From the IMG/VR virus record IMGVR_UViG_3300028379_000001, positions 4,186 to 68,185 of that record: a stretch of DNA of 64,000 nt; one strand, given 5' to 3'. The notes beneath the pieces are model-generated. The model did not search any database. It was not told the DNA's origin and saw nothing but the letters and a program-made list of their open reading frames with translations. Positions 50,237-64,000 of this stretch are shown one piece after another. Source of the stretch: a virus (lineage: Duplodnaviria; Caudoviricetes). Made by a program: the position numbers and the translations under genes. The number at the start of each line of letters is the position of its first letter. Within the stretch, counting starts at the first letter, position 1.

Positions 50237-50539
50237 TCAGTCCGTCTCGGGACCGGCCTCGATGAGCCGCTTCTGGAGTTCGGCCTTGTTGCCGGTCGTG
50301 GCCAGGTCGCGCTCGCTGAGAGCGTCGCGCAGCTCCTCCACGTTCAGCTCCTTGACCTCGTCCTCCCAGGTGAACTCCTCGGAGCCCTCCTGCTCGTCCG
50401 TCGCCCCCTGGGGAGCGGAGGGCGAGCTGGACGAGAAGCGACGATCGTTCTGGAGCACGAGGTGTCGACGACCCCGCGCCAGCAGGTACGCCCGATCCTC
50501 GGTGTTCAGCTTCTTGGTCAGATCGACCTGGTGGCTCAT
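50237..50539 (-). CDS. SAP-domain protein
   Basis: LNVEELRDALSERDLATTGNKAELQKRL matches the SAP motif. Confidence 0.75.
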   Translation of the reverse strand: MSHQVDLTKKLNTEDRAYLLARGRRHLVLQNDRRFSSSSPSAPQGATDEQEGSEEFTWEDEVKELNVEELRDALSERDLATTGNKAELQKRLIEAGPETD

Positions 50540-51864
50540 GCGACCAGCACCCCGTTGTTCGCGTACGCGGCGGGCGGGTCGTACGTCGAGGACGTACCGT
50601 TGCCGCCGATCATCATGATCGCGGCGCCACCGCGCTGACGGATGCCCGTGCCGAACGCGCGGGCGTAGTAGCTGTCGATCAGCGGGTACCGCTGCTGGTT
50701 GCCCGGCAGCAGTCGCAGACCCCGGTAGAGCGGGTTGGCGTGCTCACGGAGACCGACCGGGTTCTGGAGATCGCCCTCCCCGCCCGAGCCGAGCAGGACG
50801 ACGTACCCCGACGGGATGAACGCCTCCTCCACGATCAGGATGCCCGCGTACGAGCCGATGACGGGGAGCCCGTTCCACGACGACGGCGGCTTGGAGCCGA
50901 TGAGACCGTCGGCGTTCGGGACGATCATGGTCGGCTGTCCGTCGGCCGGGATGAAGTCGAACGTCGCCTCGGCGCCGTTGTTGTTCTCCACACCCGCCTT
51001 GAACTTCCGGATCTCCTTGATCTCGTCCCGGTTGCACAGGAGGACGAACGTGGTGCCCTGCTCGATCCCGTACCCGTGGTGGGCGACGTTCTCGTACAGG
51101 TCCTCCAGGTCGTCGGAGTCGATCACGCTCTGCCCACTGGTCATGTAGTGCGAGTGGGTGTTGTCGAACGTGATGTCCTTCCACTTCGGCGGGACCGCGC
51201 CGTCCTTGCCGTTGTACAACGAGAACACCGTGTAGTTGTTCTTGTTGATGTCGGCGTCGCGGTTGTCGTCCTGGAAGAGCGCCTCCATGACCTTCTTGAA
51301 GATCAGGCGGTTGTCGGCGCCGAGCGCCTGCTGGTGCAGGTTCTCGATCTGGCGGGCGTCCGCGTCCCGGAGGAACTTCCAGGTGTAGCGGGTCGCCAGG
51401 TCGTAGTCGTGGAAGTCGTACGCCAGCTGGAAGTACGAGATCGCGGCGCGCTGCCCCTGCGGCTCCCCGAACTCGGAAGCCATCTCGAACGTGCCCTCGC
51501 CACCCTGCGGGACGTTCTCGATCAGCTGCGTCACCGGGAACGTCATGAGAGCGACCAGCGCGGCCCGCTTCTCGTTGTAGACGTCGAGGACGAGCTGGAA
51601 CTCCTCCCACATCGCGTTGAGGTCGATGCCGTCGTTGGTGGCGGTGACGATGTCACCCTGGGTCATGTAGCCGCCGCCCTCGGCGCCACCGATGCCGGGC
51701 AGGTACCCGATCGACGCCAGGGACAGCATCTCCTTGCCCGTCATCGGGGACGAGCCGATCGGCCCCTCCCAGATCTTCGGGGTCAGGATCGGGTGGTTGG
51801 CCAGGGACAGCTCCATCTGGTACCGCGCGTAGTCCTTGGACAGGCGGTTCATCTTCACGCTCAT
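50536..51864 (-). CDS. Major capsid protein
   Basis: 442 aa after scaffold/decoration genes; EMASEFGEP, YDLATRYTW, YARAFGTG. Confidence 0.85.
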   Translation of the reverse strand: MSVKMNRLSKDYARYQMELSLANHPILTPKIWEGPIGSSPMTGKEMLSLASIGYLPGIGGAEGGGYMTQGDIVTATNDGIDLNAMWEEFQLVLDVYNEKRAALVALMTFPVTQLIENVPQGGEGTFEMASEFGEPQGQRAAISYFQLAYDFHDYDLATRYTWKFLRDADARQIENLHQQALGADNRLIFKKVMEALFQDDNRDADINKNNYTVFSLYNGKDGAVPPKWKDITFDNTHSHYMTSGQSVIDSDDLEDLYENVAHHGYGIEQGTTFVLLCNRDEIKEIRKFKAGVENNNGAEATFDFIPADGQPTMIVPNADGLIGSKPPSSWNGLPVIGSYAGILIVEEAFIPSGYVVLLGSGGEGDLQNPVGLREHANPLYRGLRLLPGNQQRYPLIDSYYARAFGTGIRQRGGAAIMMIGGNGTSSTYDPPAAYANNGVLVA

Positions 51865-52277
51865 CAGGCACCCACCGCCGCGCCCTCGTCGACAGAAACG
51901 ACGAGACGCCCCTTCTCGACCGTGTGGCCGACGTAGATCCCACCCGTGGCGGCGGCCTGGACCGCGCCCGTGGTGGCGTTGACGTACACCTTGATGCCCG
52001 GCGCGGCGAGCGCGAGGGGCGCAGCGGGGATACCCGCCACGTCGAACTCGACGATCTCGCCCCGCTTCATCGGGTCGACCGGCTCGCGGCCCGCCTTGAC
52101 GATGCGGGTGAGGATCAGAACACCGATGATCCCGGTGGCGCCCGCGCCCTTGACGATGCGACCGGCGTTGTTCAGGCCCACGCCGACGACCTTGTTAAGG
52201 TCGGCGGCGAGCCAGTCCGCCGCCAGGAACGCGCGCGTCCCCGACATCTTCGAGTCGTACTTGTCATACTTGGCCAC
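51864..52277 (-). CDS. Capsid decoration/cement protein
   Basis: 137 aa, Gly/Ala/Val-rich beta protein between scaffold and capsid. Confidence 0.65.
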   Translation of the reverse strand: MAKYDKYDSKMSGTRAFLAADWLAADLNKVVGVGLNNAGRIVKGAGATGIIGVLILTRIVKAGREPVDPMKRGEIVEFDVAGIPAAPLALAAPGIKVYVNATTGAVQAAATGGIYVGHTVEKGRLVVSVDEGAAVGA

Positions 52278-52308
52278 GAGTCGGTCTTCCCTTCTTCTCG
52301 GTGGCTAG

Positions 52309-53025
52309 CTAGCGCCGAAGCTTGTACTTCTTCGCCATCTCTTCCCGACGCTTGTTCTTCTCGTCGGGCTGCCCGCTCTGCGGGCTGTGACCGCTGGCAC
52401 CATTCTGGGCGCCGGTCCCGTTCTTGCTGTCCTTGTCCTTGTCGTCCTGCTGAGTCTTGCCCTTCAGCAGGAACGGCTTGTCCTTGGACAGCTTGGTCAG
52501 GGCATCCTTGACGCCCTTGACCTTGCCCGTCTCCTGGTCGACGTCGAGGTCGTCCATGTCCACGAGCTGAAGCACCACCTCGGGGTCGTGCCAGGTGAAG
52601 CCGGGGTACTGCAGGATGGCGTTGGCGATCTTCCCGCGAAGGTTCTCCTTCTCCAGGTGCTCCAGCTTCTGCTGGGCCACCTGCAGGTCACGCTGTGCCT
52701 TCTCCAGCTCCGACCTCTCGGCGTCGTCCATCTCCTGGAGACGCTTCTCGGCCTTGCCCTTGGCCTCGTCCGCCGCGTTCAGGCGTCGAAGGATGGTGTT
52801 GTAGTCCTCCTCGGAGTACATCTTCGGCTGGATCGCAGCGCCGTCGCCCGAGGGATCTCCCTCGGGGTTGGCGTCCTTGTCCTTGTCCGAGTCAGTGCCC
52901 GAGTTGCTGCCGTCTCCGCCATCGTTGTCGCCGTTCTCGGCGCCACAGATCAGGTAGATCGGGAAGCCGGTGGACGTGACACCAAGGACGCGGGTCATCC
53001 GCGACTTGGCGAGCATCTTGCTCAT
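52309..53025 (-). CDS. Scaffolding protein
   Basis: Start re-called to ATG 53025 after GGAGG; acidic linker, coiled coil, KLSKDKPFLLK. Confidence 0.8.
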   Translation of the reverse strand: MSKMLAKSRMTRVLGVTSTGFPIYLICGAENGDNDGGDGSNSGTDSDKDKDANPEGDPSGDGAAIQPKMYSEEDYNTILRRLNAADEAKGKAEKRLQEMDDAERSELEKAQRDLQVAQQKLEHLEKENLRGKIANAILQYPGFTWHDPEVVLQLVDMDDLDVDQETGKVKGVKDALTKLSKDKPFLLKGKTQQDDKDKDSKNGTGAQNGASGHSPQSGQPDEKNKRREEMAKKYKLRR

Positions 53026-53093
53026 TAAGAGTCCTCCAGATTGGTGCCAGACTTGACGGTTCATAATGATACCGGATCGCAGACCAATCACGA

Positions 53094-54020
53094 TCACCGG
53101 TCGAAGTTGTAAGTCTCCTTCAAGTACCCGTCCCAGTCGCCACTGACGAGACGGTCGAGGAATGCGCCGGGCTCCATTGTCTTGGGGAACGTGTAGCACA
53201 GGCACTGGGGGTGCGGTTTCGCCGGAACCTCGCCGAGCGGGAAGACGCCCTTGCCGAGCTTGGAGTGGTCGCGGCGGGCGTACGTGTCGCAGATATCGAC
53301 CGTCGGATGCGAGCCCGAGAGGTTCCACTGCATCCCCTCGTTCCACGGCTTGTCCTCGTTGTGGACGATGGTGACGGCGTGGTACGCGTTGTTGATCTCG
53401 GTCCGGGCCAGACGCTTCGCCGCGTAGCTCGCGCCGCCCTTGACGTTCGGGTCCACGAACGCCACAACCTCGTCGCGGAGCCGGGCGACGGTTGCGCCCC
53501 GCCCGAGCGCGGCGTCAATCCGGCTCTCGACCCAGCCGTCGGTGAGCGCCTGGGTCTTGTAGACCTGCTCCGAGAGCGGGATGCGGGACTTGTAGATCCG
53601 CGCAATCATCGCCTCCACGTTGAAGCGCCCGGCCTCGGTGATCGACTCCTTCATCGCGGCGCGCTTCTGGGCGGTGATGTTGAGCTTGAGCAGCGGCGCG
53701 TCCCAGTCGAAGCTCGTGCGCAGAGCCTCGGTCGCCGCGTCCGCCTGGCCCGCGCGGAGGAGGTCCCCCATCAGGTTCCAGAAACTCGACAGCGTTCCGG
53801 AGATCGCGGTCATGCTCGCCATGAGCTGCTGCGAGCGGACGACGGCGCCGATCGACTCCAGGTCGCCGAGCGCGTCGAACTCGTTACGCGCTGACGCCAT
53901 CGCTTCCCGCAGGCGTAAGTCCACCTGTGCGTCGTAGCGCCACTGTAGGCGCAAGTACCGGGTAAGCCATATCCGGGAGTCCGATTGTCCCGTCGCGCCG
54001 GATCGGTTGGGCGTTGTCAC
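53094..54020 (-). CDS. MuF-like minor head protein
   Basis: AKRLARTEINNAYH...DICD...PHPQCLC. Confidence 0.85.
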   Translation of the reverse strand: MTTPNRSGATGQSDSRIWLTRYLRLQWRYDAQVDLRLREAMASARNEFDALGDLESIGAVVRSQQLMASMTAISGTLSSFWNLMGDLLRAGQADAATEALRTSFDWDAPLLKLNITAQKRAAMKESITEAGRFNVEAMIARIYKSRIPLSEQVYKTQALTDGWVESRIDAALGRGATVARLRDEVVAFVDPNVKGGASYAAKRLARTEINNAYHAVTIVHNEDKPWNEGMQWNLSGSHPTVDICDTYARRDHSKLGKGVFPLGEVPAKPHPQCLCYTFPKTMEPGAFLDRLVSGDWDGYLKETYNFDR

Positions 54021-54381
54021 TGGTAATCCTCCACTCGTACACGTCCTTGAAAGTCACAATCCAGTAGCGCCAGGCCGGATAGTGCCAGCCCTCCAGATCG
54101 CCCTTGCTCGGCCGCTCCCGCCCGCGTGGGTGCGAGTGGTAGATCCCGATGACGTCCTCCAGCTTGTCCATCATGATGTCGACGGTCTGCTTGGGGTCCA
54201 TTGTGAAGTTCTGGTCCGGCTTGGAGTGCGTGTTCCGGATCGGCCAGACCGTGAAGTCCTTCATCACAAATCCGCACATCTCCGTCATGCCCCGCGTCTT
54301 CGCCATGCTCACAAGCGCATGGGCAACCTCTTCCGGCATTACCCTGAAAGTCGGGTCTGTCTTGTGCCAGGTTGACGGCAT
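54017..54381 (-). CDS. JAB/MPN (Mov34-like) metalloprotease domain protein
   Basis: EMCG...NTHSKPDQNFTMDP...GIYHSHPRGRERPSKGD (ExnHxHx10D). The ORF track runs this frame to 53884, so the C-terminus overlaps MuF. Confidence 0.8.
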
Positions 54382-54440: not shown

Positions 54441-54506
54441 TCAGCGGTTCTTCTTCTTGCGTCGGTCCTTCTTGCCCCGGCCGCCCTTCGCCTTTCCTCG
54501 CGCCAT
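54441..54506 (-). CDS. 21-aa protamine-like peptide MARGKAKGGRGKKDRRKKKNR
   Basis: ATG after GAGGAGGG; competes with overlapping 54433-54633 ORF. Confidence 0.4.
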   Translation of the reverse strand: MARGKAKGGRGKKDRRKKKNR

Positions 54507-54610
54507 TCCATCCCTCCTCTCCAACAATCCAGTCACGCCACGCTCCGAGCATTCGGGCCAGGAGGTCGTCTCCCGCCCGGGCGCCCTCACGCGACAGCCG
54601 CGTCAGCAGC

Positions 54611-55195
54611 TCATCGCTTGACTCGGGTGCCACTGGTCACCTGGCGATTGGACTTCCGGGTGGTCTTGCGGGGCTTGCGGGGCCGAGGCGCCGCAACCTG
54701 GATGGCGTCTCCTGCGGTGAGCGTGGAAGGCACCCCCTTCGCTGACGATCGGGTCCGAGCGCGGCGCCGGGGCGAGCGCCCGTTCGCGGCCGGACGAGTC
54801 TGGATCTCGGCGTCTCGCCGAGTCGCCGGGGTCGTGGAGACTCGGAAGTTCGGCTTGAAGTTGACGCCGCCCGCTTGGATGCGGAACTGGTTGACCTGGA
54901 TGTCCTCGCCCTTGAAAATCTTGGCGATGTTGGACTGGCCACCCTTGTCGCCGAACCGACCGGCGATGTTGTCGATGCCTCGGTTGATGACGGAGCGGCC
55001 GATGTCCGAGCCGTTCACGCGCTCGACTCGAACCAGAGCGCCAACGTACAACTGCGCCCGGCCCGGCAGGACCGGGACGCGAACGCCAGCGTTGTAGGAG
55101 ATCGACCGAGTGGACAGCCGGACGCTCTGCGACAGCTTCGGTCGGAACCGACCGTTGGGGTAACGGGGGTGCTCAGCAGCGTTCCAGCGCGCCAC
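54611..55195 (-). CDS. Basic Arg-rich head-region protein
   Basis: GTG 55195 after AAGGAGG; EHPRYPNGRF motif; R/K-rich tail. Confidence 0.7.
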   Translation of the reverse strand: MARWNAAEHPRYPNGRFRPKLSQSVRLSTRSISYNAGVRVPVLPGRAQLYVGALVRVERVNGSDIGRSVINRGIDNIAGRFGDKGGQSNIAKIFKGEDIQVNQFRIQAGGVNFKPNFRVSTTPATRRDAEIQTRPAANGRSPRRRARTRSSAKGVPSTLTAGDAIQVAAPRPRKPRKTTRKSNRQVTSGTRVKR

Positions 55196-55224: not shown

Positions 55225-56727
55225 CTACCGGGCAGCCGTCGCGCGCCGGGCGGAGAGGAAGTGATGGACGCCCTTGGCGACCGCGTCCACGATGTCGTCG
55301 TTCTCCACATTCGGGTATGCGATCTGCTGCTCCTCCAGAGCGGTAAGTCCGGGCGCGTGGAAGACCCACTCGCGCGTGTAGTAATCGTGGAGGTCGGCGA
55401 TGCGCTGGATCTTCGGCGCGTGCTCGTGCGGAGTGAGAACCTGGACCGATCGAGGGAGCGGGAGGATGCGGACCTTGACGAAGTCGCCGCCCTGGTTCAC
55501 CTCGATGATGACTGTGGTGATGTCGGGGTGCGTCCGGATGAACCAGTGGACCAATTCGCGCAGCTTGTCGGGGCGGAGCTTCACGCCCCGCGCCCATTCG
55601 ACCATAACGCGACGCTGCGCCGGATCGCTCGCGAGTAGCGCAATGCCGGTGTAGTCGGAGGTCTCCTTGGATGTGGTCGCCGGGTCAATCACGAGCACCT
55701 TGTGCGAGGACTGGAAGTGCGCATCGTAGCGGAAGTCATCCCGGTCCCAGAAGCCCGAGCTTGTGGAGAGCGGCTGGTTCTGCATGTTGAGGGCGAAGGT
55801 CCGGGTCCGGCGCATCGCGCCCAACTCGTCCGCGTCCCACCGTACCGGCCAGAGACTGCGCTCTACGCCCTTCTCGTCGCGGTACAGCGCCGGGTAGTAC
55901 CGGCACTTGAAGTTCTCCTCCTCGATCCACTCCGCGACCTTCCCGCCCGTGGCGGATCGCACGACGTCGTGGATGATGGAGTCGTACATGACGGTTGTCC
56001 CGACCATCTCGACCGCCGCGTTCAGGTTCATGGGCAGGATCGCGTCGAGGATCGTCCGGAGGCGCTTCTCCTTGGCGCCGAGCCCGTAGCGGGCACCGGG
56101 CGGCTCGACATCATCCAGGCACAGGAGATCCGGGCGCATCGTGCCGGACTTGAGCCCGAGCGTCCGCGCGTCGATCCCCTTGGCGATGATCGTGTGCCCG
56201 CCCTTGCTGTGGAACTCCGTGGAGTTGTCGGTGTCCGAGCGGTTGCCGCGTCGGAGCGCCGGGGCGCACAGGTCGGGGTAATCTGTGATGAGCCGGGGGT
56301 TGGTCTCCAGCTCCTTCTTGAGGGAGCGGAAGTGCTCGAATGCCTGCCCACCCGCGTCGCTGAACAGTGCGGGGAAGTGGCGGTGTCCGTGGGCGAGCGC
56401 CCACATCGGGAGGATGCCGAAGTCCCAGGTGGATTTGCCCGAGTGGCGAGGAGCGGACCACGCGCGGCGGTGCTCGCGGTTCCCGAGCGGGTTCCGCCAG
56501 CGGAGAGCGTTCTGTGCCATGTCTATGTGGAGCTGGTTCAGGCTGAACCGGTTCTTGGTCTCGCTGGATCGGAGCCAGTCCGGCATGTACACGAACGCGA
56601 ACAGGAGCGGGTTGTCCCGAGTCACCGCCCGCCGGTATTCCGGCTCATCCATGTAGTCCGGGTCGAGTCCCCGGACGAGGGAGTGGATGGCGAAACCCGG
56701 CGGGTGGTAGATGTAGTTGTCATCCAT
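55225..56727 (-). CDS. terL: Terminase large subunit 2 (complete)
   Basis: Walker A APRHSGKS, Walker B LLCLDDVE, VGTT, nuclease VIDPA...SDYTG...NDDIVDA. Confidence 0.9.
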   Translation of the reverse strand: MDDNYIYHPPGFAIHSLVRGLDPDYMDEPEYRRAVTRDNPLLFAFVYMPDWLRSSETKNRFSLNQLHIDMAQNALRWRNPLGNREHRRAWSAPRHSGKSTWDFGILPMWALAHGHRHFPALFSDAGGQAFEHFRSLKKELETNPRLITDYPDLCAPALRRGNRSDTDNSTEFHSKGGHTIIAKGIDARTLGLKSGTMRPDLLCLDDVEPPGARYGLGAKEKRLRTILDAILPMNLNAAVEMVGTTVMYDSIIHDVVRSATGGKVAEWIEEENFKCRYYPALYRDEKGVERSLWPVRWDADELGAMRRTRTFALNMQNQPLSTSSGFWDRDDFRYDAHFQSSHKVLVIDPATTSKETSDYTGIALLASDPAQRRVMVEWARGVKLRPDKLRELVHWFIRTHPDITTVIIEVNQGGDFVKVRILPLPRSVQVLTPHEHAPKIQRIADLHDYYTREWVFHAPGLTALEEQQIAYPNVENDDIVDAVAKGVHHFLSARRATAAR

Positions 56728-57202
56728 CGGTCTGCTCGCGCTCCTGCTGTTCTGCCTGCATCTGGAAGGCCTGGATCATCTCCCGAATCTCCAGGTCATG
56801 CTCGGTAAGGGCGGCGACGTGGCCCTGGAACTTGGTTGGTGCGTCGAGGCCCAATAGCTCGCGCCGACTCTTCAACAACCGATCCAGAACCACCAGTGCC
56901 TTGAGCTTGTCCACCGGGTCGATGATCTGGCGCAGCGCCTCGATCCCCTGATGGTACAACTCGTCCAGTTGCTGGACTGCGAGAATTCGTTCCTCTTCCG
57001 CGCCAGGCGGGGCATTCATCCGCAGCCCCTCCTTGAACAGCTTGTGCGCTGTCGAGGTGGAGCAATTCAGCTTCTCGGCGATGAGGGGGAACGTCGCCCC
57101 ATCACGCCGCATCTCCCAGACGAGTCGAATCTGCTCGGCGCGCTCGACCGGATCGGGGTTGGGGTGGTTGATGGATTGCCCCAACCTCCGCTCGATCGCC
57201 AT
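56720..57202 (-). CDS. HTH protein, probable terminase small subunit
   Basis: MRRDGATFPLIAEKLNCSTSTAH HTH; SRRELLGLDAP; overlaps TerL2 start. Confidence 0.7.
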   Translation of the reverse strand: MAIERRLGQSINHPNPDPVERAEQIRLVWEMRRDGATFPLIAEKLNCSTSTAHKLFKEGLRMNAPPGAEEERILAVQQLDELYHQGIEALRQIIDPVDKLKALVVLDRLLKSRRELLGLDAPTKFQGHVAALTEHDLEIREMIQAFQMQAEQQEREQTDG

Positions 57203-57296
57203 TCCGCGCTGCCTATCCTCCGATTATGTAGCTTCCGGCTACAGGTGTTCGTGCGTGAATCCTAGCAGGAGTATGAACAGAATGCACTCCTGGCTG

Positions 57297-58691
57297 CTAG
57301 CTATTGTCGTCAACACCCCGCTTAGTGTAGTGGCCGGTCTTGATCCACTCTCGCATCTCGGCCTTCGTCATCGAGTCGAGATCCACCGGCGAAGGCCCGC
57401 CCGGCGGAAGCGCGACGATCTGGTTGGACTCGTTGAACTTTGCCTCCAGATCCTTCAGCCGTCGGATCTCGCCGCGTCGCTTGAACTCCAGCGCCTGATA
57501 CGTGCCGAGTTCCCGCCCGGCGGACACGGCCGCGTGCGCGTGGCGCTCGGTTTCGCTCCGCAGATTGTCGGCCTGCTTCCGCAGTCTTCCGATGGTCTTC
57601 TCGCCGATGTTGTGCAGGAGCTGCCACTGGTTGCTACGCGACTCCAGATGAGCGATACGCTCCGCGTGTTCGGCACGCCGATCCTGCCACTGGAAGTGCG
57701 CCTGCCACTGGAGCCCATAGATCGCCATCGCGTAGACGAACATCGCCGTGTTGAAGAGCGCCATGCTATCCACGCGGCCCCTCCATCAGTCGCAGGATCG
57801 TGTAGCAGATCATCGCGGTCACAATCAGCCAGAAGACGTAGCCGATCGCATTGTCGAGGACTGCCTGCCAGCCGAACATCGTCATCAGTGCCGCTTCCTC
57901 TCCAAGTACAGGAACAACCCAATCACGCAGATCAGGAACACGCCGCCGGACACGAACGTCGCGGTCCACTCCCCCGCCGTCACAGGGAGACCGCCGAAGT
58001 TCCAGCCGACCTTAGTCATCTCCCATCGCCCCCGCCCGTGGGCCGTTCTCCAGCATCTCGGGCGGGGGCGCCTGGAATCCGGCGGCCTGCCTCGCGCGCA
58101 GGTGCTCCAGTCGCCGATCCTCGGCGGCCTTCTCGCGGATGGCGTTCTTGGTCAGGACGAACCACCCCAGCGACATCAGCAGGAACAGGATCGCGGCGGC
58201 GAGGATGTGGAACATGAACCCGACGATCGCCACAAGGGCGACCCCGGCCCCGAGCAGGACATAGGCCGGTCCCTTGAGGCCGGGGTCGAGCCCCTGCAGC
58301 GGATCGAACTTCATGCTACTCCTGCTCTCCTAGGTTGTGTCCGCTCGGCTTCGGGCGGGTGTTGTACGGGCACTCGGGGTGCAGACAGGCTTCCTTCTTG
58401 GGTCCGCCCACGAGCCCCTTCACACACTTCCCCGGGCACACCGGGTCACTCGTCGTGTTCGTCGTCTGGGACACTGTTGAACTGCCTCCACTTCAGCCAT
58501 GTGTCGATCAGGGCGATGGCGATGGCCAGGGCAGTGAACACGACCACGTACCGGAACACTCCGAGCCGATCCGGCAGGAGGTTCCCGAAGTAGACCGTTC
58601 CCACGTACAGCCCCAGCAGCACCATCAGGCAGGCCCACGTCACGAGCGCGGACCGGACCAGGTAGCGGCGCCAGTCCAGAAGCTCCTTCAC
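57297..58691 (-). other. Cluster of membrane/coiled-coil small genes: 57297-57773, 57766-57885, 57885-58019, 58012-58314, 58446-58691
   Basis: Hydrophobic segments; overlapping stop/start codons. Confidence 0.6.
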
Positions 58692-59524
58692 AGACCCAGC
58701 CCGCGCTCGTAGCGGCTCGCCCGCTTGTCCATCACTTCGCGGTCGACTCGATCACCCGGCCCTGCGATCCGGTCCCGGCTTCCCGCTCCGCCTTCACCGG
58801 CGCGGGCTCGGCCGCTGGTGTCACCGGGCCTGTACGTACTGCATCGGGCACAGCAGACACCCGCTCCCGTTGCACAACCTTCCGTGCACGATCCGGCACA
58901 GTTCTCACACCTCTCATTGGCCATCTCTGTCCTCCCGGTTAATAGCGCGCCGCGCGCCGTCCAGATCATTTCTTCTGGTATTCCTTGCAGGTCTGTTTGG
59001 GGTGCGTAGACCAACAGATCACCGCACAGTCCCAGCACTCCTGGCAGTAGACGTCGGAGTCTCCCGGCGCCCAGTCCTCCTTCTGTCCGCATTCACATTC
59101 GCATGCGCACTCCTTCTTCTCCTTCCTGCTAGCCATCACGACTCCCGGTGTGGCTTGTTGGTCGCGCCGCAAATGAGCGGGTCGACTGCGGTCGACGCCA
59201 CCCATTGCTGCAGGGACATCGAGAAGAAAAGCGGCCGATCACAGTCTACGCAGCGGGGCCTCTCCTCAGCCACGAAAGTCCGCCTCCAACGAACGCGCCG
59301 AGACCAAGAGCGGCTTCGTCGGGACCGCCTTCCCCATTCGCTTCGCGCACGGGGCGCAGAAGATCCCTCGGAGCCCATCGACCGTCTGGGCCTTGCCGGG
59401 CTCGCCGCAGATCTCGCACTGCCCGCTAGCCACGGCAGTCAACCCTGCACCAGATCTTGCCGTCCACGAACACGAAGACATAGGTCTCCTTGCCGCACTT
59501 CCAGCACTTCGCCAGCATGCTCAT
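58688..59524 (-). other. Five tandem Cys-rich microgenes: 58688-58924, 58966-59136, 59136-59273, 59266-59433, 59426-59524
   Basis: CxxC/CxC motifs in each; coupled starts. Confidence 0.65.
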
Positions 59525-60308
59525 CCGTTCGACCTCTTCTCCTTCAGCTCCTCCAGACTGGGCCACTTGTGGCCCTTGTCGATCATGACGGCGTGGAACA
59601 GGCCGATGTTCAGCGGCGGCTCGCCCTCCCCCGCCCACTGCCAGTTGTCCTGGTAGTCGGACCAGGCCCACCGGATCTCGACGTCCTCGGGGTTCGGATC
59701 TCCCGCCGACGCGAGGAGGTTCTGCACCGTGACCTTGACCGCGTCGTCGCCGTACATGATCATTGCCTCGCGGCCGATCGCGGCAGTCCGGTACGTCTCC
59801 ATCACGCGAGGTCCGCGAGCTGGTCGCCGATGCGGGCGTTGGCGTTCTCTTCCAGCTCCTTGGCGAAGGCCCGAGCCTGCATGATGACCGGCTTCATCAT
59901 CAGCTCGGTGCCGTTCTCCTTGGCCTCGTGCTCGACGACATCGGCGCCCTTCCGGATGAGCGGGACCACCGCCAGGATCACCATCGGGTTCCGCAGGGTC
60001 TTCGGCAGTGCGGTCTGCTTCTGTCGGCTCACGTCTTACTCCTCCGTAGTGGCTTCCGGGCCACGTGTGCGCGCCCCCGGCGTTCGGGGCCACGATCGGT
60101 CTGGGTTCTGGTGCTTGAGTGCTTCCTGGACCTCGTCCACCGGCCATCCGATCACCATGCCCGGCGAATACCTCGTCATGGTCTTACGGGTGGAACCGGG
60201 GTGGGAGTGGCCCAACATCTCGTGGACCAGTTCCTTCGGGTAGACGATGAATGCACCCTCGGGAACAAACATCATCACTCCGGGGTCCTTCTGCTTCTTC
60301 TTGGTCAC
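59521..60308 (-). other. Three hypothetical genes: 59521-59802, 59802-60032, 60036-60308
   Basis: ORF track; starts re-called. Confidence 0.65.
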
Positions 60309-60344
60309 ACGATCGGTTCCCTTCCTCCCCGCTTGACCCTCTCA

Positions 60345-60385
60345 ATGATAGACGCCCCCGGCGTTTTACGCTAGGGGCGTCTATC
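60345..60385 (-). promoter_or_regulatory. Two degenerate GACGC-N5-GCGTC sites forming a hairpin, with TATCAT -10 candidate
   Basis: 60351-65 and 60367-81, one mismatch each; upstream of the 60308 operon. Confidence 0.55.
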
Positions 60386-60405
60386 AGGCCTTACTCAGGA
60401 ACCGG

Positions 60406-60654
60406 CTACTTCCGGACCTTCGAGCCCTGGGTGTTCGACTTCGCTCCGGGCCATACTCCGGTGTACCGCTTGTGGAACTTCGCGCAAACACCCTTCGCCT
60501 GTCCGTCGCTCATTCCGTGCTTCCGGGCCTGTCGAACGCAGCGGGTGAAGTCCCCGCCCGTGCCCCAGCGGATACGCTTCCCGACCTTCCCGCCGGGGGC
60601 GTACGCCTTCTGGAGCTGAGCCGGCATTCGGCTCGCCGTACTACCCTTCGCCAT
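60406..60654 (-). CDS. Small basic protein (WGTGGDFTRCVRQARKH...CAKFH)
   Basis: ORF track; K/R-rich. Confidence 0.7.
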   Translation of the reverse strand: MAKGSTASRMPAQLQKAYAPGGKVGKRIRWGTGGDFTRCVRQARKHGMSDGQAKGVCAKFHKRYTGVWPGAKSNTQGSKVRK

Positions 60655-60932
60655 TACTCCTCCTCGTCGATCACGACGTTGCCGAACTGGAACAGCTCCA
60701 GCCCCTTGTGCAGGAGACCGATAGCGGCGGTCGACCTGCAGTGTCCGTGCCGGAAGGCCAGACCGAACCCCTCGCCGTCGGTCTCGCCCTCGTCGTCGAG
60801 GGTGATCCCCTCGATCACCACAACGTAGTCCACGAGCGTTTCACGGGGCAGGAGCTTGTACGCATCCACAACCCGATCCATCGCCTCGTCGAGGGCCTTG
60901 TCGGCTGCCTTCTGTGCCAGCGTCTTAGCCAA
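60654..60932 (-). CDS. Hypothetical protein
   Basis: Probable TTG start at 60932 after GAGGAG. Confidence 0.55.
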   Translation of the reverse strand: MAKTLAQKAADKALDEAMDRVVDAYKLLPRETLVDYVVVIEGITLDDEGETDGEGFGLAFRHGHCRSTAAIGLLHKGLELFQFGNVVIDEEE

Positions 60933-61179
60933 AGTTCTTCTTGCTCCTCGCGAGGGCGTTCTTGGCGGCCTTGGTGGTGGCGCGCTTGCCGACGGCCTTG
61001 TTCCGAACGCCGGGACGGCGCCGCTTCTTGGCTCCGACCTTCCCGCCCGAGAGGTTCTTCTTGGCCTTCTGCTTCTCCTCGTCCTTGCGCGCCTTGTTCT
61101 GCTGGATGGTCTCGACCTTCTCGCCATCCGACTTGTGCGCGAACTTCCCATTCTTGGATCGCGTGTACCTACGCGCCAT
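60925..61179 (-). CDS. Highly basic protein (MARRYTRSKNGKFAHK...)
   Basis: RBS AGGAG; about one third K/R. Confidence 0.7.
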   Translation of the reverse strand: MARRYTRSKNGKFAHKSDGEKVETIQQNKARKDEEKQKAKKNLSGGKVGAKKRRRPGVRNKAVGKRATTKAAKNALARSKKNFG

Positions 61180-61384
61180 CGGGCTTCTCCTGGCTCGGCT
61201 GGTTGTTGACGGAGCCCCAGTCGGGAGGCCGGAAATCGGCCCTTAAATGCTCCGTAGCGGTTTCAGGCCTCCGGGAGGACCCGGAAGACGTTTCAGGAAG
61301 GCTCTGACCACATGAGGGGCACGTGCCGCGCCTTCTCGATCGCTTCTCGTGCCGCTTCGCGTCGCGTTCGGCTCGACTACTCAC
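61169..61384 (-). CDS. Hypothetical basic protein with CPSC
   Basis: Overlaps portal stop. Confidence 0.45.
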   Translation of the reverse strand: MSSRAERDAKRHEKRSRRRGTCPSCGQSLPETSSGSSRRPETATEHLRADFRPPDWGSVNNQPSQEKPDGA

Positions 61385-62879
61385 TCGGGACCACCTCCTG
61401 GGTGTCGTTGGCGCCGAGTTCCGCGTTCACCCGCTCGGCGAACGGGTCCGCCGTCAGCGACTTCTGCTCGGCGAGGACTTCGGCGCTGTCGGCGCTGATC
61501 TCCAGGCCCAACCGATCGATCAACATCTGCCGGCCTTCGGCGATCGTGATGAGCTTGGCGGTGACGAGGGCGGTGACTTCCTCGATCACCCCCGCCCGGT
61601 TGATCGGGAGCGGGTCGCCAAAGATCGTGGCCACGGAGACCTCGGTAGTGATCCCCTCGTACGCGGCGAACCACATGCGCGCGATGTCGAAGAACATCTG
61701 GTCGTAGATCCCGATCATCGCCATCTCGCGCTCGGCGTTCCCGGCGAGGATCGGGGAGAGCTGGAACTGGAGGGAGATGCCGGACTCCGCAACCGCGACG
61801 TCCACCTTCCCCATCGCGATGTCGGGGACGCCGACGCCGGTCGCGCCGCTGTCTTCGAGCAACTTGATGTGGTCCTGCGAGGGGGCCACGCTGCCAACCC
61901 CTTGCAGCCTGCCCACCACGCGGCCCTGTGGGACCTCGGTCATCCGGAGCGGACCCAACTCCCACGCGGTCGGCTCGCCTGCCTCGTTGATCGGCGGAGC
62001 CGCGTCGGTCCAGTAGCCGCCGAGCCCCGACATCACCAGCGCCAGATCCTCGTCGGAGATGGACTGGTTGATCGCGGCCAGCACCAGCTCGATACCGCGC
62101 ACGAGGCTGTGCCCAAACTTGCCGTTCTGCGACTCCCCGTTGGGGATGTGGTAGACGGGCAGGCTCGTGATCACCGGAGGCAGCTCGGTTGGGTTGACGA
62201 GTTGCTGGACCTTGGTGATGTCCGTAGGCTCCAGGTTCCGGTCGTCCCACTTCCCGATCTCGAACAGGGCCAGCTCGGTCGTGATGGAACCGGTCTCGGT
62301 CTTCCGGTAGGTCTGGACCCGCGCGAGTTGCTTGTTGTCGTCGTTCGGGTCCTTCACCGTGTCCACGAGATGACATCCGAGAACGCGCGTGTCGTTGTCG
62401 GGGTCCATGATCGGGAAGTACTGCGAGGGGTGGACCTCGTGAATGGAGATCCGTTCGCCTTCGGGCTTCGCCGGGTCCGCCGTGATGTGCCAGATGACGT
62501 CGCCCCGGATGAGGCCGTTGCGCTTCTGGGAGATGTACTTGGTGTAGAACCGCTCGCGCTTGAAGAGGGCGGCGAACGCGTCCTCGACGAGCTGCTTGTC
62601 GCCGTCGGTTCCGCCCTCCCCGGCCTCGACGACGAAGTCCATGTCCACGCCCAGGAAGCGGTTCGTCGCCTCGACGATCTTCCGCGCGCTCGGGAGGTAG
62701 ATCGGCGCTTGGTCCTCGCCGCGCTGGAGCAGTCGGAAGGTCTCGGGGTGGTTCCAGTACATCTGCTCATACAGGTTGTACGCGCGGATGCGGTTCTGGT
62801 CGAACTCGGGCAGTCCAGCAGCGGCCTGTTCCTGGAAGAACGGGACGGCCGAACTGTACTGATGGTAGGTTGCCATCAC
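61377..62879 (-). CDS. Portal protein
   Basis: 500 aa directly after TerL1; RIRAYNLYEQMY, YHIPN...FGHS, ESGISLQFQLSP. Confidence 0.9.
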   Translation of the reverse strand: MMATYHQYSSAVPFFQEQAAAGLPEFDQNRIRAYNLYEQMYWNHPETFRLLQRGEDQAPIYLPSARKIVEATNRFLGVDMDFVVEAGEGGTDGDKQLVEDAFAALFKRERFYTKYISQKRNGLIRGDVIWHITADPAKPEGERISIHEVHPSQYFPIMDPDNDTRVLGCHLVDTVKDPNDDNKQLARVQTYRKTETGSITTELALFEIGKWDDRNLEPTDITKVQQLVNPTELPPVITSLPVYHIPNGESQNGKFGHSLVRGIELVLAAINQSISDEDLALVMSGLGGYWTDAAPPINEAGEPTAWELGPLRMTEVPQGRVVGRLQGVGSVAPSQDHIKLLEDSGATGVGVPDIAMGKVDVAVAESGISLQFQLSPILAGNAEREMAMIGIYDQMFFDIARMWFAAYEGITTEVSVATIFGDPLPINRAGVIEEVTALVTAKLITIAEGRQMLIDRLGLEISADSAEVLAEQKSLTADPFAERVNAELGANDTQEVVPSE

Positions 62880-64000
62880 ATTCTCCTCTGCCTGCGCTTG
62901 TTCCCAATTGTAGCGCGGTTGTTGCGGCTCATACCGCTATCCGCTGGCGTGCCTTCCCAGCCCGCGAAGAACCGCCCAAGCGCCTCGGGTGTGTGGTCGT
63001 CCTTCTTCATCGGGTTCTCATGAGCCTCATCGCCAAGGATCGACTCCTTTCGGTCGGGATAGCGATATGCGAGGAACTCACGGATCGTGTTCGTGCATCG
63101 GCGGTGGAACCGAAGCCGGGGTAACCGCTCCGTATGGCCAACTGGCAGATGCCGCAGGTCCTTGCGTGGCTTGAGTGCTTCGCGGATAGCGTCGAGGCGA
63201 TGCTTGAGCTCCCCGCCCGTTCCGCCGCCAGACGGGATGCGGAGGATCTTCTCGATCTGGGCATTGTCCCCAGGCGCTGCCGGATCTCCATAGAACATCC
63301 GTACGCCACGATCCAGCTGGCGCTCGCGAACAGTCTCAGCGAACACATCCGGCGTCATCTCCCTCTCGTAGACCTCGTCCAGTACGTCGATGTTCCCCCA
63401 GGGGTCGATCTGTATGTAGAGCCAGACCGAAGGGTTCCGATACCCCGCATCGCACGCAGCATAGTGGAGATAGGACGGCTCGTAGGGAATGTCGTCCACG
63501 TGCCACTCTTCGTCGAACTCCTTGAAGACGCGGCCGACGAACTCGGTGAAGTCGGCGCCGATCTCCTGCATGAAGGCGTCGGGCGTGAGGTCGTTCAGCA
63601 TGCCCACGATCTCGGAGTCGATCACGAGCCCGAGGTGTTCCGCGAGTTCTTCGGCGTTGTGGCGATTCTTCGGCGACTTCTGCAACTCGACGACCTTGCG
63701 AACGTGTTCGCCGATCGTCGGGGTCTTGTAGACGTAGGGGTTCATCCAACTCGGAACCCGCCAGGAATCCCATTCGGAGTAAGCCGGGTCCTGGCCCTGC
63801 TGCCATCGCTTGTAGAACCAGTTCTTGCCCTCCGGGGTGGACGTCATAAGCGCCCAGCCGTCGAAGTCGGCGAGCATGGGTCGAATGTACTTGACCCAGA
63901 CGACCTCCTTCAGCTTCGCAGCCTCCGCCAGCACCACTCCGTGCAGTCCTTCGCCCACCAGAGTGTCAGGGTGCTTGGCAGACTTAGCATGAAGCTGGAA
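62876..64000 (-). CDS. terL: Terminase large subunit 1 (5' end outside window)
   Basis: LVGEGLHGVVLAEAA Walker B, TSTPEG coupling motif, nuclease ACDAG and KKDDHTPEAL. Confidence 0.9.
   Translation of the reverse strand, partial: FQLHAKSAKHPDTLVGEGLHGVVLAEAAKLKEVVWVKYIRPMLADFDGWALMTSTPEGKNWFYKRWQQGQDPAYSEWDSWRVPSWMNPYVYKTPTIGEHVRKVVELQKSPKNRHNAEELAEHLGLVIDSEIVGMLNDLTPDAFMQEIGADFTEFVGRVFKEFDEEWHVDDIPYEPSYLHYAACDAGYRNPSVWLYIQIDPWGNIDVLDEVYEREMTPDVFAETVRERQLDRGVRMFYGDPAAPGDNAQIEKILRIPSGGGTGGELKHRLDAIREALKPRKDLRHLPVGHTERLPRLRFHRRCTNTIREFLAYRYPDRKESILGDEAHENPMKKDDHTPEALGRFFAGWEGTPADSGMSRNNRATIGNKRRQRRM

Follow-up and report, generated by a model that had tools for sequence, protein, structure and literature searches.

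Two unrelated, apparently intact terminases in a MortySmith-like phage genome, one of them from a lineage that recurs as a second terminase

Tailed phages are taught to have one terminase, which sets how the genome is cut and packaged. The subject of this report is a 64-kb stretch of DNA from an uncultured, high-GC actinophage (bases 4186-68185 of the IMG/VR record IMGVR_UViG_3300028379_000001, hereafter the window), in which a large terminase subunit coupled to the portal (TerL1) is accompanied by a second pair made up of a small (TerS2) and a large (TerL2) subunit. The best matches to TerL2 among cultured phages are 36-41% identical and are the sole annotated terminases of their genomes. The Streptomyces phages Rooney, Gibson, Dryad and KimJongPhill and the Microbacterium phages OscarSo, Wyvern and Isperia encode TerLs of the family to which TerL2 belongs, at 37-41% identity across more than 90% of the length; phages of the Rooney/OscarSo type share the catalytic motifs of TerL2 and have a helix-turn-helix (HTH) small subunit of the same PHROG (phrog_645), but in these genomes no other terminase is annotated and the terminase precedes the portal, whereas TerL2 falls in a different subclade and shares its genome with a cognate TerL1. 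More distant members of this family, phrog_38, come from Mu-like phages. For the backbone the nearest described relative is Microbacterium phage MortySmith (with JDawG and Aesir), which is alike in sequence and gene order; unlike the window phage it has a single terminase and no insert between portal and MuF. A TerS-TerL pair of the same broad family (36-41% identity) is also found in the capsid-forming Streptomyces satellites MiniFlayer and MulchRoom (PMC10690885), and hence this type of terminase travels on parasitic elements of actinophages. These satellites are separate genomes of 15-17 kb with their own portal, capsid and terminal repeats of about 1 kb, whereas the module in the window has neither portal nor capsid of its own, does not form a discrete element and falls on a different branch of the tree. 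Staphylococcus aureus pathogenicity islands and phage-inducible chromosomal islands (SaPI/PICI), in which a satellite-encoded TerS redirects packaging using the TerL of the helper (reviewed in PMC10690885), offer a functional resemblance only, in that a second packaging-specificity subunit would take part in mobile-element conflict; there the extra subunit resides on the satellite, whereas here a complete TerS and TerL are carried by the phage itself. Our full-text literature search recovered no account of two complete, unrelated terminases in a single phage and no report of a terminase lineage that is always second, although such an absence is not proof. The component proteins are thus ordinary members of known families, but their arrangement is not ordinary.

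The presence of two intact, unrelated large terminases in one genome, as claimed in the preliminary description of this DNA, is confirmed by family matches, by motifs and by independent assemblies. TerL1 and TerL2 belong to different TerL families (phrog_2 and phrog_38, respectively), and the genome carries two apparently complete pairs of small and large subunits. Two intact TerLs of different families cannot be a product of chance, and the gene order repeats in independent assemblies. The positions previously given for TerL1, TerL2 and the HTH protein stand, and so does the apparent completeness of the second pair; what had been overlooked was the small subunit of the first pair (TerS1), the insertion of the second pair in a variable block and the existence of a subclade of the TerL2 family that, where context could be read, occurs only as a second terminase. 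We are highly confident that the genome is that of a MortySmith-like phage in which the routine TerS1/TerL1 pair is coupled to the portal, and to which TerS2/TerL2, probably together with the neighboring gene g54611, was added by horizontal acquisition at a hot spot of variation within the head operon, and that the TerL2 subclade supplies an extra terminase wherever the context suffices to tell.

The IMG/VR record is 68,185 bp long with ends overlapping by 127 bp, which indicates a circular assembly. GC content is even across the window (0.62-0.69), GC content at third codon positions (GC3) is 0.8-0.97, and the minus strand carries nearly all genes. The N-terminus of TerL1 and the TerS1 gene fall outside the window. 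The features of the region are as follows, in the order of the operon:

G000:C1:1343-1978, upstream of TerL1 and outside the window: TerS1, matching phrog_10899 "terminase small subunit" (E 7e-28)
G000:C1:1-~500, across the circular junction: N-terminus of TerL1 with the Walker A motif GRRFGKS, from reconstruction of the junction
62876..64000 and beyond, minus strand: TerL1, C-terminal 374 of 499 amino acids, matching phrog_2 (E 7e-29)
61377..62879, minus strand: portal, matching phrog_64 (E 1e-37) and Pfam SPP1_portal
57297..61179, minus strand: variable block of about 12 small open reading frames (ORFs), from GC3 gene calls
60340..60385, minus strand: hairpin in the gap between g60406 and g60036, minimum free energy -49.2 kcal/mol
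56720..57202, minus strand: TerS2, 160 amino acids, with an HTH_23 match and a phrog_645 match (E 4e-15)
55225..56727, minus strand: TerL2, 500 amino acids, matching phrog_38 (E 7e-61)
54611..55195, minus strand: g54611, 194 amino acids, called from a ribosome-binding site with a GTG start and from synteny
54441-54590: ORF of 49 amino acids, between g54611 and the JAB gene
53884..54381, minus strand: JAB/MPN metalloprotease-like protein, 165 amino acids, matching Pfam Prok-JAB (E 1.5e-13)
53094-54020, minus strand: MuF-like protein, from PHROG/Pfam matches
52309-53346, minus strand: scaffold, from PHROG/Pfam matches
51864-52277, minus strand: decoration/head-fibre-like protein, from PHROG/Pfam matches
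50536-51864, minus strand: major capsid protein (MCP), from PHROG/Pfam matches

The portal is the sole one in the genome region, and its start shares 4 nt with the stop of TerL1. The second pair does lie downstream of it, as previously described, but at a portal-TerS2 distance of 4.2 kb and not about 5 kb, and TerL2 does not adjoin the portal in the window. Likewise, TerL2 does precede MuF in the gene order without being its direct neighbor, because three small genes intervene (194 and 49 amino acids and the 165-amino-acid JAB protein). The ancestral head module, from the MuF-like gene to the MCP gene, spans 50536..54020 on the minus strand; the JAB gene upstream of MuF is an ancestral part of it, being kept in the relatives termed G1 and G2 and throughout the MortySmith-like clade.

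The motifs earlier noticed in TerL2 are all present, namely APRHSGKS (residues 92-99), LDDVE (204-208), IDPA (347-350) and DDIVD (477-481). The first contributes K98 and the second, within LCLDDVE, contributes D205, D206 and E208 to the ATPase, to which a GTT coupling motif (T244) may be added. The possibility of decay or poor conservation, which the preliminary description had raised against its own interpretation, is contradicted by the invariance of the catalytic residues: in an alignment first made with 45 homologues and then enlarged to 151, K98, D205, D206, T244, D348, E409, D478 and D481 are unchanged in 151 of 151 sequences, the exceptions being E208, which is Q in a single sequence (G1), and D358, which is H in three sequences, all of them outside the subclade. 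Within the subclade the nuclease acids D348, D358, E409, D478 and D481 are all invariant; no residues specific to the subclade were found in the 151-sequence alignment. Pfam Terminase_6C is annotated on several homologues. An AlphaFold2 model of TerL2 (predicted local distance difference test score, pLDDT, 89.4) retrieved full-length TerLs in a Foldseek search, including those of PhiV-1 (8dgc_E, 1.9e-20), T4 (gp17, 7e-14) and HK97 (7e-12), as well as those of D6E and Sf6. TerL2 is accordingly placed among the TerLs on its predicted ATPase, its predicted RNaseH/RuvC-like nuclease and the modelled fold of the whole protein, and it is apparently an intact ATPase and nuclease, with activity predicted from these residues. 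A separate observation concerns the G1 homologue (L015:16857-18434), which lies on a very long branch, has its portal 12 nt away and shows Gln at the position of Glu208 (LDDIQP); the ATPase of this protein may be altered.

TerS2 is an HTH protein with further helices whose gene overlaps that of TerL2 by 8 nt, and the two are translationally coupled. Its orthologues lie upstream of every TerL2 gene of the clade, and weak similarity to known small subunits emerges from these orthologues only: the L023 protein matches the TerS of OscarSo (7e-8) and the G1 protein that of Rooney (4e-4). A PDB profile search with TerS2 itself returned HTH proteins only (sigma-r4/GerE-like). The assignment of TerS2 to the small subunits thus appears partly established, against the fuller case for TerL2. 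The phrog_645 family is labelled "RNase E" in the DNA-metabolism category. We observed that the phrog_645 proteins at window positions 56720-57202, L015:13782-14249 and L028:9169-9603 are each the HTH partner of a phrog_38 TerL; the family seems, from these contexts, to behave as the small-subunit partner of phrog_38-type TerLs, and the label is probably an annotation error. Around terS2 no pac-like repeats or conserved hairpins were common to the five clade members compared, and a hairpin upstream of terS2 is insignificant (z 0.47).

The gene directly 3' of TerL2 throughout the MortySmith-like clade, g54611, is a candidate third member of the module. Its product has a W-x-P-x-x-HPR-x-x-NG-RF motif near the N-terminus, a core rich in beta structure and a C-terminal tail that is very basic. 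The family is tiny, with about 20 representative clusters among 1.8 billion proteins, and the protein has no match in Pfam, PHROG or Atlas; its AlphaFold2 model is of low confidence (pLDDT 60) and too poor for a structure search.

The first pair is best understood by comparison with the MortySmith-like backbone. Rebuilt across the circular junction, TerL1 is 499 amino acids long and has orthologues of 45-78% identity in MortySmith, G1, G2, L007-L011, L022 and L030, which keep GRRFGKS, a STPEGKNWF motif and the three nuclease Asp motifs; in all of these relatives except G1 it precedes the portal. Identity to MortySmith amounts to 33% for TerS1, 45% for TerL1, 34% for the portal, 36% for MuF, 31% for the scaffold, 44% for the head-fibre-like protein, 46% for the MCP and 57% for the major tail protein, with the same gene order. 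Relatives in which TerL1 is the only terminase and is followed by the portal comprise MortySmith, G2 (a complete 69.5-kb record) and L007-L011. These comparisons identify TerS1/TerL1 as the cognate terminase of the backbone, and since all relatives share TerL1 and several have it alone, TerS1/TerL1 is the ancestral pair and TerS2/TerL2 the acquired one. We also observed that the Walker-B-like stretch of TerL1 (window about 63400-63500) reads VVLAEAAK, with no Asp, in the window, L022, L030, G1 and MortySmith, and IFDEAAK in G2; apparently Ala can stand in place of the canonical Asp in this family, or a different acid is used. The records of MortySmith, Rooney and OscarSo have no terminal repeats and begin at a gene start, which, going by deposit convention, suggests permuted genomes in both terminase families and no contrast between them.

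The arrangement in the window is shared, in the order TerS1-TerL1-portal-small genes-TerS2-TerL2-g54611-(sortase)-JAB-MuF-scaffold-decoration-MCP, by assemblies from Logan, JGI, NCBI and ENA samples. The 71.8-kb contig L022, from a Logan run, is 78% identical in TerL1, 62% in the portal, 40% in TerS2, 54% in TerL2, 66% in MuF and 78% in the MCP; for L030, from JGI, the corresponding values are 69, 59, 40, 43, 54 and 77%. The fragments L023, L029 and L024/L025 each span part of the same order. Among the clade relatives the MCP is 63-78% identical. Of the large proteins TerL2 and TerS2 have diverged furthest, with about twice the amino-acid divergence of TerL1 and the MCP, yet they are intact. 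G1 (IMG/VR, 49 kb) is rearranged: TerS1 and TerL1 are followed by 7 kb of small genes including a phrog_645 TerS2-like gene, then by TerL2 and, 12 nt on, by the portal. Beside this order we note that a sortase gene separates the g54611 homologue from the JAB gene at L022:12799-13380 and L023:7335-7874, where the window has the 49-amino-acid ORF.

Within the block between portal and TerS2, the genes g60925, g60654, g60406, g60036, g59802 and g58012 are kept in clade relatives (tblastn to L022, L023 and L030), while its small ORFs gave no informative family matches in Pfam or PHROG. No integrase, portal, capsid or replication gene was found between 54.4 and 61.2 kb, where only small ORFs accompany the terminase pair. 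At the same portal-JAB/MuF junction G2 has 9.5 kb of different cargo (L018:1-7400), including a 760-amino-acid protein and an LtfC-like beta-sandwich protein. By comparison of these genomes the junction can be described as a cargo hot spot of the group. The hairpin at 60340-60385 (z -5.15, with none of 200 shuffles equally stable) overlaps two one-mismatch copies of the GACGC-N5-GCGTC promoter palindrome of the genome. An early promoter at these copies (60351/60367) was considered and rejected for want of a properly spaced -10 box, and the site is read as a hairpin, possibly placed at a transcript boundary or serving as a regulatory site within the block.

The main new result comes from the distribution of the TerL2 family. 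In trees of 71 and 151 family members (IQ-TREE SH-aLRT and FastTree), TerL2 falls in a subclade of 24 to 25 members, supported at 99% in two trees. Every established dual-terminase case is a member of this subclade, and the six members with enough context are all dual-terminase genomes (6/6), whereas a second TerL is found in none of the 21 large IMG/VR records with a TerL2-family gene outside it (0/21), a comparison drawn from phylogenetically related cases. The search for second TerLs covered 22 large records, 12 of them at least 90% complete, with phrog_2, phrog_9 and Pfam Terminase_3 and Terminase_6N; all extra matches fell on the gene of the TerL2 family, and G1 was detected as the positive control. 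The dual cases are the MortySmith-like clade, G1, P0051 and the provirus G016. P0051, traced over the whole 58,976-bp ENA contig, is a temperate phage with an unrelated head module at the contig start, consisting of a Terminase_7 TerS, a 550-amino-acid phrog_9 TerL (E 5e-81), a phrog_104 portal, a phrog_1522 MuF/protease and an HK97-type capsid; its phrog_645/phrog_38 pair lies tens of kb off, directly after the integrase and before small early-type genes (Thy1). In G016 the pair of the subclade is at one end, and a phrog_9 TerL heads a structural operon of opposite orientation. Two further members were traced as far as their context allowed, with the head genes not reached: in L027 the pair follows the integrase, and in L141 the TerL is the last gene of an early operon that includes RusA, with lysis and tail genes facing it. 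Both layouts are compatible with a second terminase. Judging from these gene neighborhoods, the module has moved among backbones already equipped with a terminase, of which at least two, and probably three, are unrelated.

Two observations on the non-MortySmith backbones stand apart from this argument. At L028:9600-10004, in the unrelated temperate dual-terminase phage with the module directly after the integrase, a 134-amino-acid Phage_zn_bind_8-like protein is encoded between the TerS2-like and TerL2-like genes. The phrog_9 TerL of G016 (L119; G016:C1:29789-32356, minus strand) occupies an 855-amino-acid frame with one TGA within the wider match, and the frame may reflect an insertion, an intein or a fusion. 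As to wider occurrence, no TerL of the subclade was found in cultured phages (INPHARED), and species-representative genomes yielded only prophage TerLs from outside it (Amycolatopsis, Streptomyces, Pseudonocardia and others). In IMG/VR no close relative of TerL2 emerged from a single-protein pattern scan, and an alignment-based scan gave 80 loci, none of them on a MortySmith-like backbone.

What the second pair does is a more tentative matter. Taken as a whole, the structural account given above together with a role in conflict is the best explanation at hand, held with rather less than even confidence, and its functional part, a mobile, fast-evolving module for conflict between elements, is put forward tentatively from the comparative data. 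In this proposal TerS2 would recognize a pac-type site other than the routine one, most plausibly that of rival phages or of capsid-forming satellites that use phrog_645/phrog_38 terminases. TerL2 would then cut such DNA in an ATP-dependent manner or start to package it, with the result that competitor concatemers would be sabotaged or capsids diverted, and it need not replace TerL1 in normal packaging. A conflict role is favored because the module is accessory, mobile in variable positions and faster-evolving, which are traits of conflict genes; its sites, which follow an integrase, close an early operon or fall within a variable block, are moron-type and variable. As such a role requires no fit to the resident portal, it would explain how the module could function on backbones with unrelated portals. 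Rivals of the phrog_38 type are plausible targets because those relatives of the module that are the only terminase of their genome belong to actinophages and satellites with the same hosts. A bolder version, which we regard as doubtful, is that the entire terminase subclade is specialized as a mobile weapon or piracy device, which would recognize the packaging site of rivals or fit their portals and either shred their concatemers or load the carrier genome into their capsids.

Several observations weigh against a role in conflict or against the generality of the second-terminase pattern. Throughout the MortySmith-like clade the module is encoded within the late head operon and on its strand, and the G1 TerL2 lies 12 nt before the portal, which fits equally well with packaging through its own portal. 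The fully conserved translocation-type ATPase motifs exceed the needs of a simple nuclease; the accessory subclade is not on the branch of the TerLs of known satellites; and no pac-like repeats were detected near terS2 in the five clade members. In addition, the contrast of 6/6 with 0/21 may reflect few evolutionary events, the cases being phylogenetically related, and G016 could be two adjacent elements.

The main rival, by our ranking, is an alternative or backup route for packaging the phage's own genome, in which TerS2 would bind a second pac site and TerL2 would dock on the same portal, allowing packaging to survive terminase-directed interference from satellites or host defences or yielding a second headful series. 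We consider it unlikely, even though the holoenzyme is complete with conserved motor and nuclease residues, the pair shares strand and operon with the head genes (in G1 directly upstream of the portal) and has been retained over deep divergence. The difficulty lies in the portal: the subclade occurs with unrelated portals (phrog_64 versus phrog_104), elsewhere the module is far from head genes, by an integrase or at the end of an early operon, and the portal that TerL2 would need to match evolves more slowly than TerL2 does; relatives with TerL1 alone are viable. The preliminary description had offered among its interpretations a division of labour between end cutting and translocation, which we have dropped as the leading idea: each of the two enzymes keeps both predicted activities, relatives with TerL1 alone, MortySmith among them, are viable, and the TerS2/TerL2 module moves among phages with unrelated cognate terminases and portals. 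On these grounds the comparative data favor interference with co-infecting phages or satellites, or alternative packaging, over a division of labour.

A portal-independent role in processing DNA for replication or recombination, for example site-specific ATP-dependent cutting early in infection, would suit the backbones in which the module lies among early or replication-type genes (RusA, Thy1, dCMP deaminase), and in the window the pair is embedded in small early-like genes with a strong hairpin; we judge it improbable in view of the lack of precedent, of a TerS partner and full motor motifs that are not obviously needed for it, and of the late-operon position in the MortySmith-like clade. 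More improbable still is a selfish or near-neutral passenger, such as a captured cassette left as a frozen terminase-replacement intermediate or a satellite remnant. Horizontal gain into variable regions, faster evolution and the lack of a detectable partner portal would all be expected of such a passenger, but its ORFs are intact and its catalytic residues invariant though TerL2 identity falls to 38-60%, TerL2 is kept together with TerS2 and g54611 and recurs on unrelated backbones, and no integrase, flanking repeats or replication genes delimit a discrete element in the window. An integrated satellite (PICI, capsid-forming PICI or MiniFlayer-like) was likewise rejected, as there is no discrete element and the block is inherited with conserved neighbors. 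The assembly of two phages into a chimera, which the preliminary description had itself named as fatal to its claim and for which the metagenomic origin of the assembly would speak, is effectively refuted, because independent Logan, JGI, NCBI and ENA contigs show the same order, GC and GC3 are uniform, and parts of the head module flank the insert on either side.

TerL serves widely as a marker of phages, as a predictor of packaging type and as a means to count viral genomes in metagenomic data. These uses rest on assumptions that do not hold for genomes with two unrelated TerLs, which can also be mistaken for chimeras. In the present case a complete second terminase, catalytically intact by its residues, has been kept across a diversified phage clade, which probably points to an undescribed use of the packaging machinery, be it in competition between viruses, in resistance to packaging interference or in DNA processing. 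Should the interpretation of the module as a conflict weapon or piracy device prove true, it would represent a new class of inter-virus conflict system built from the packaging motor.

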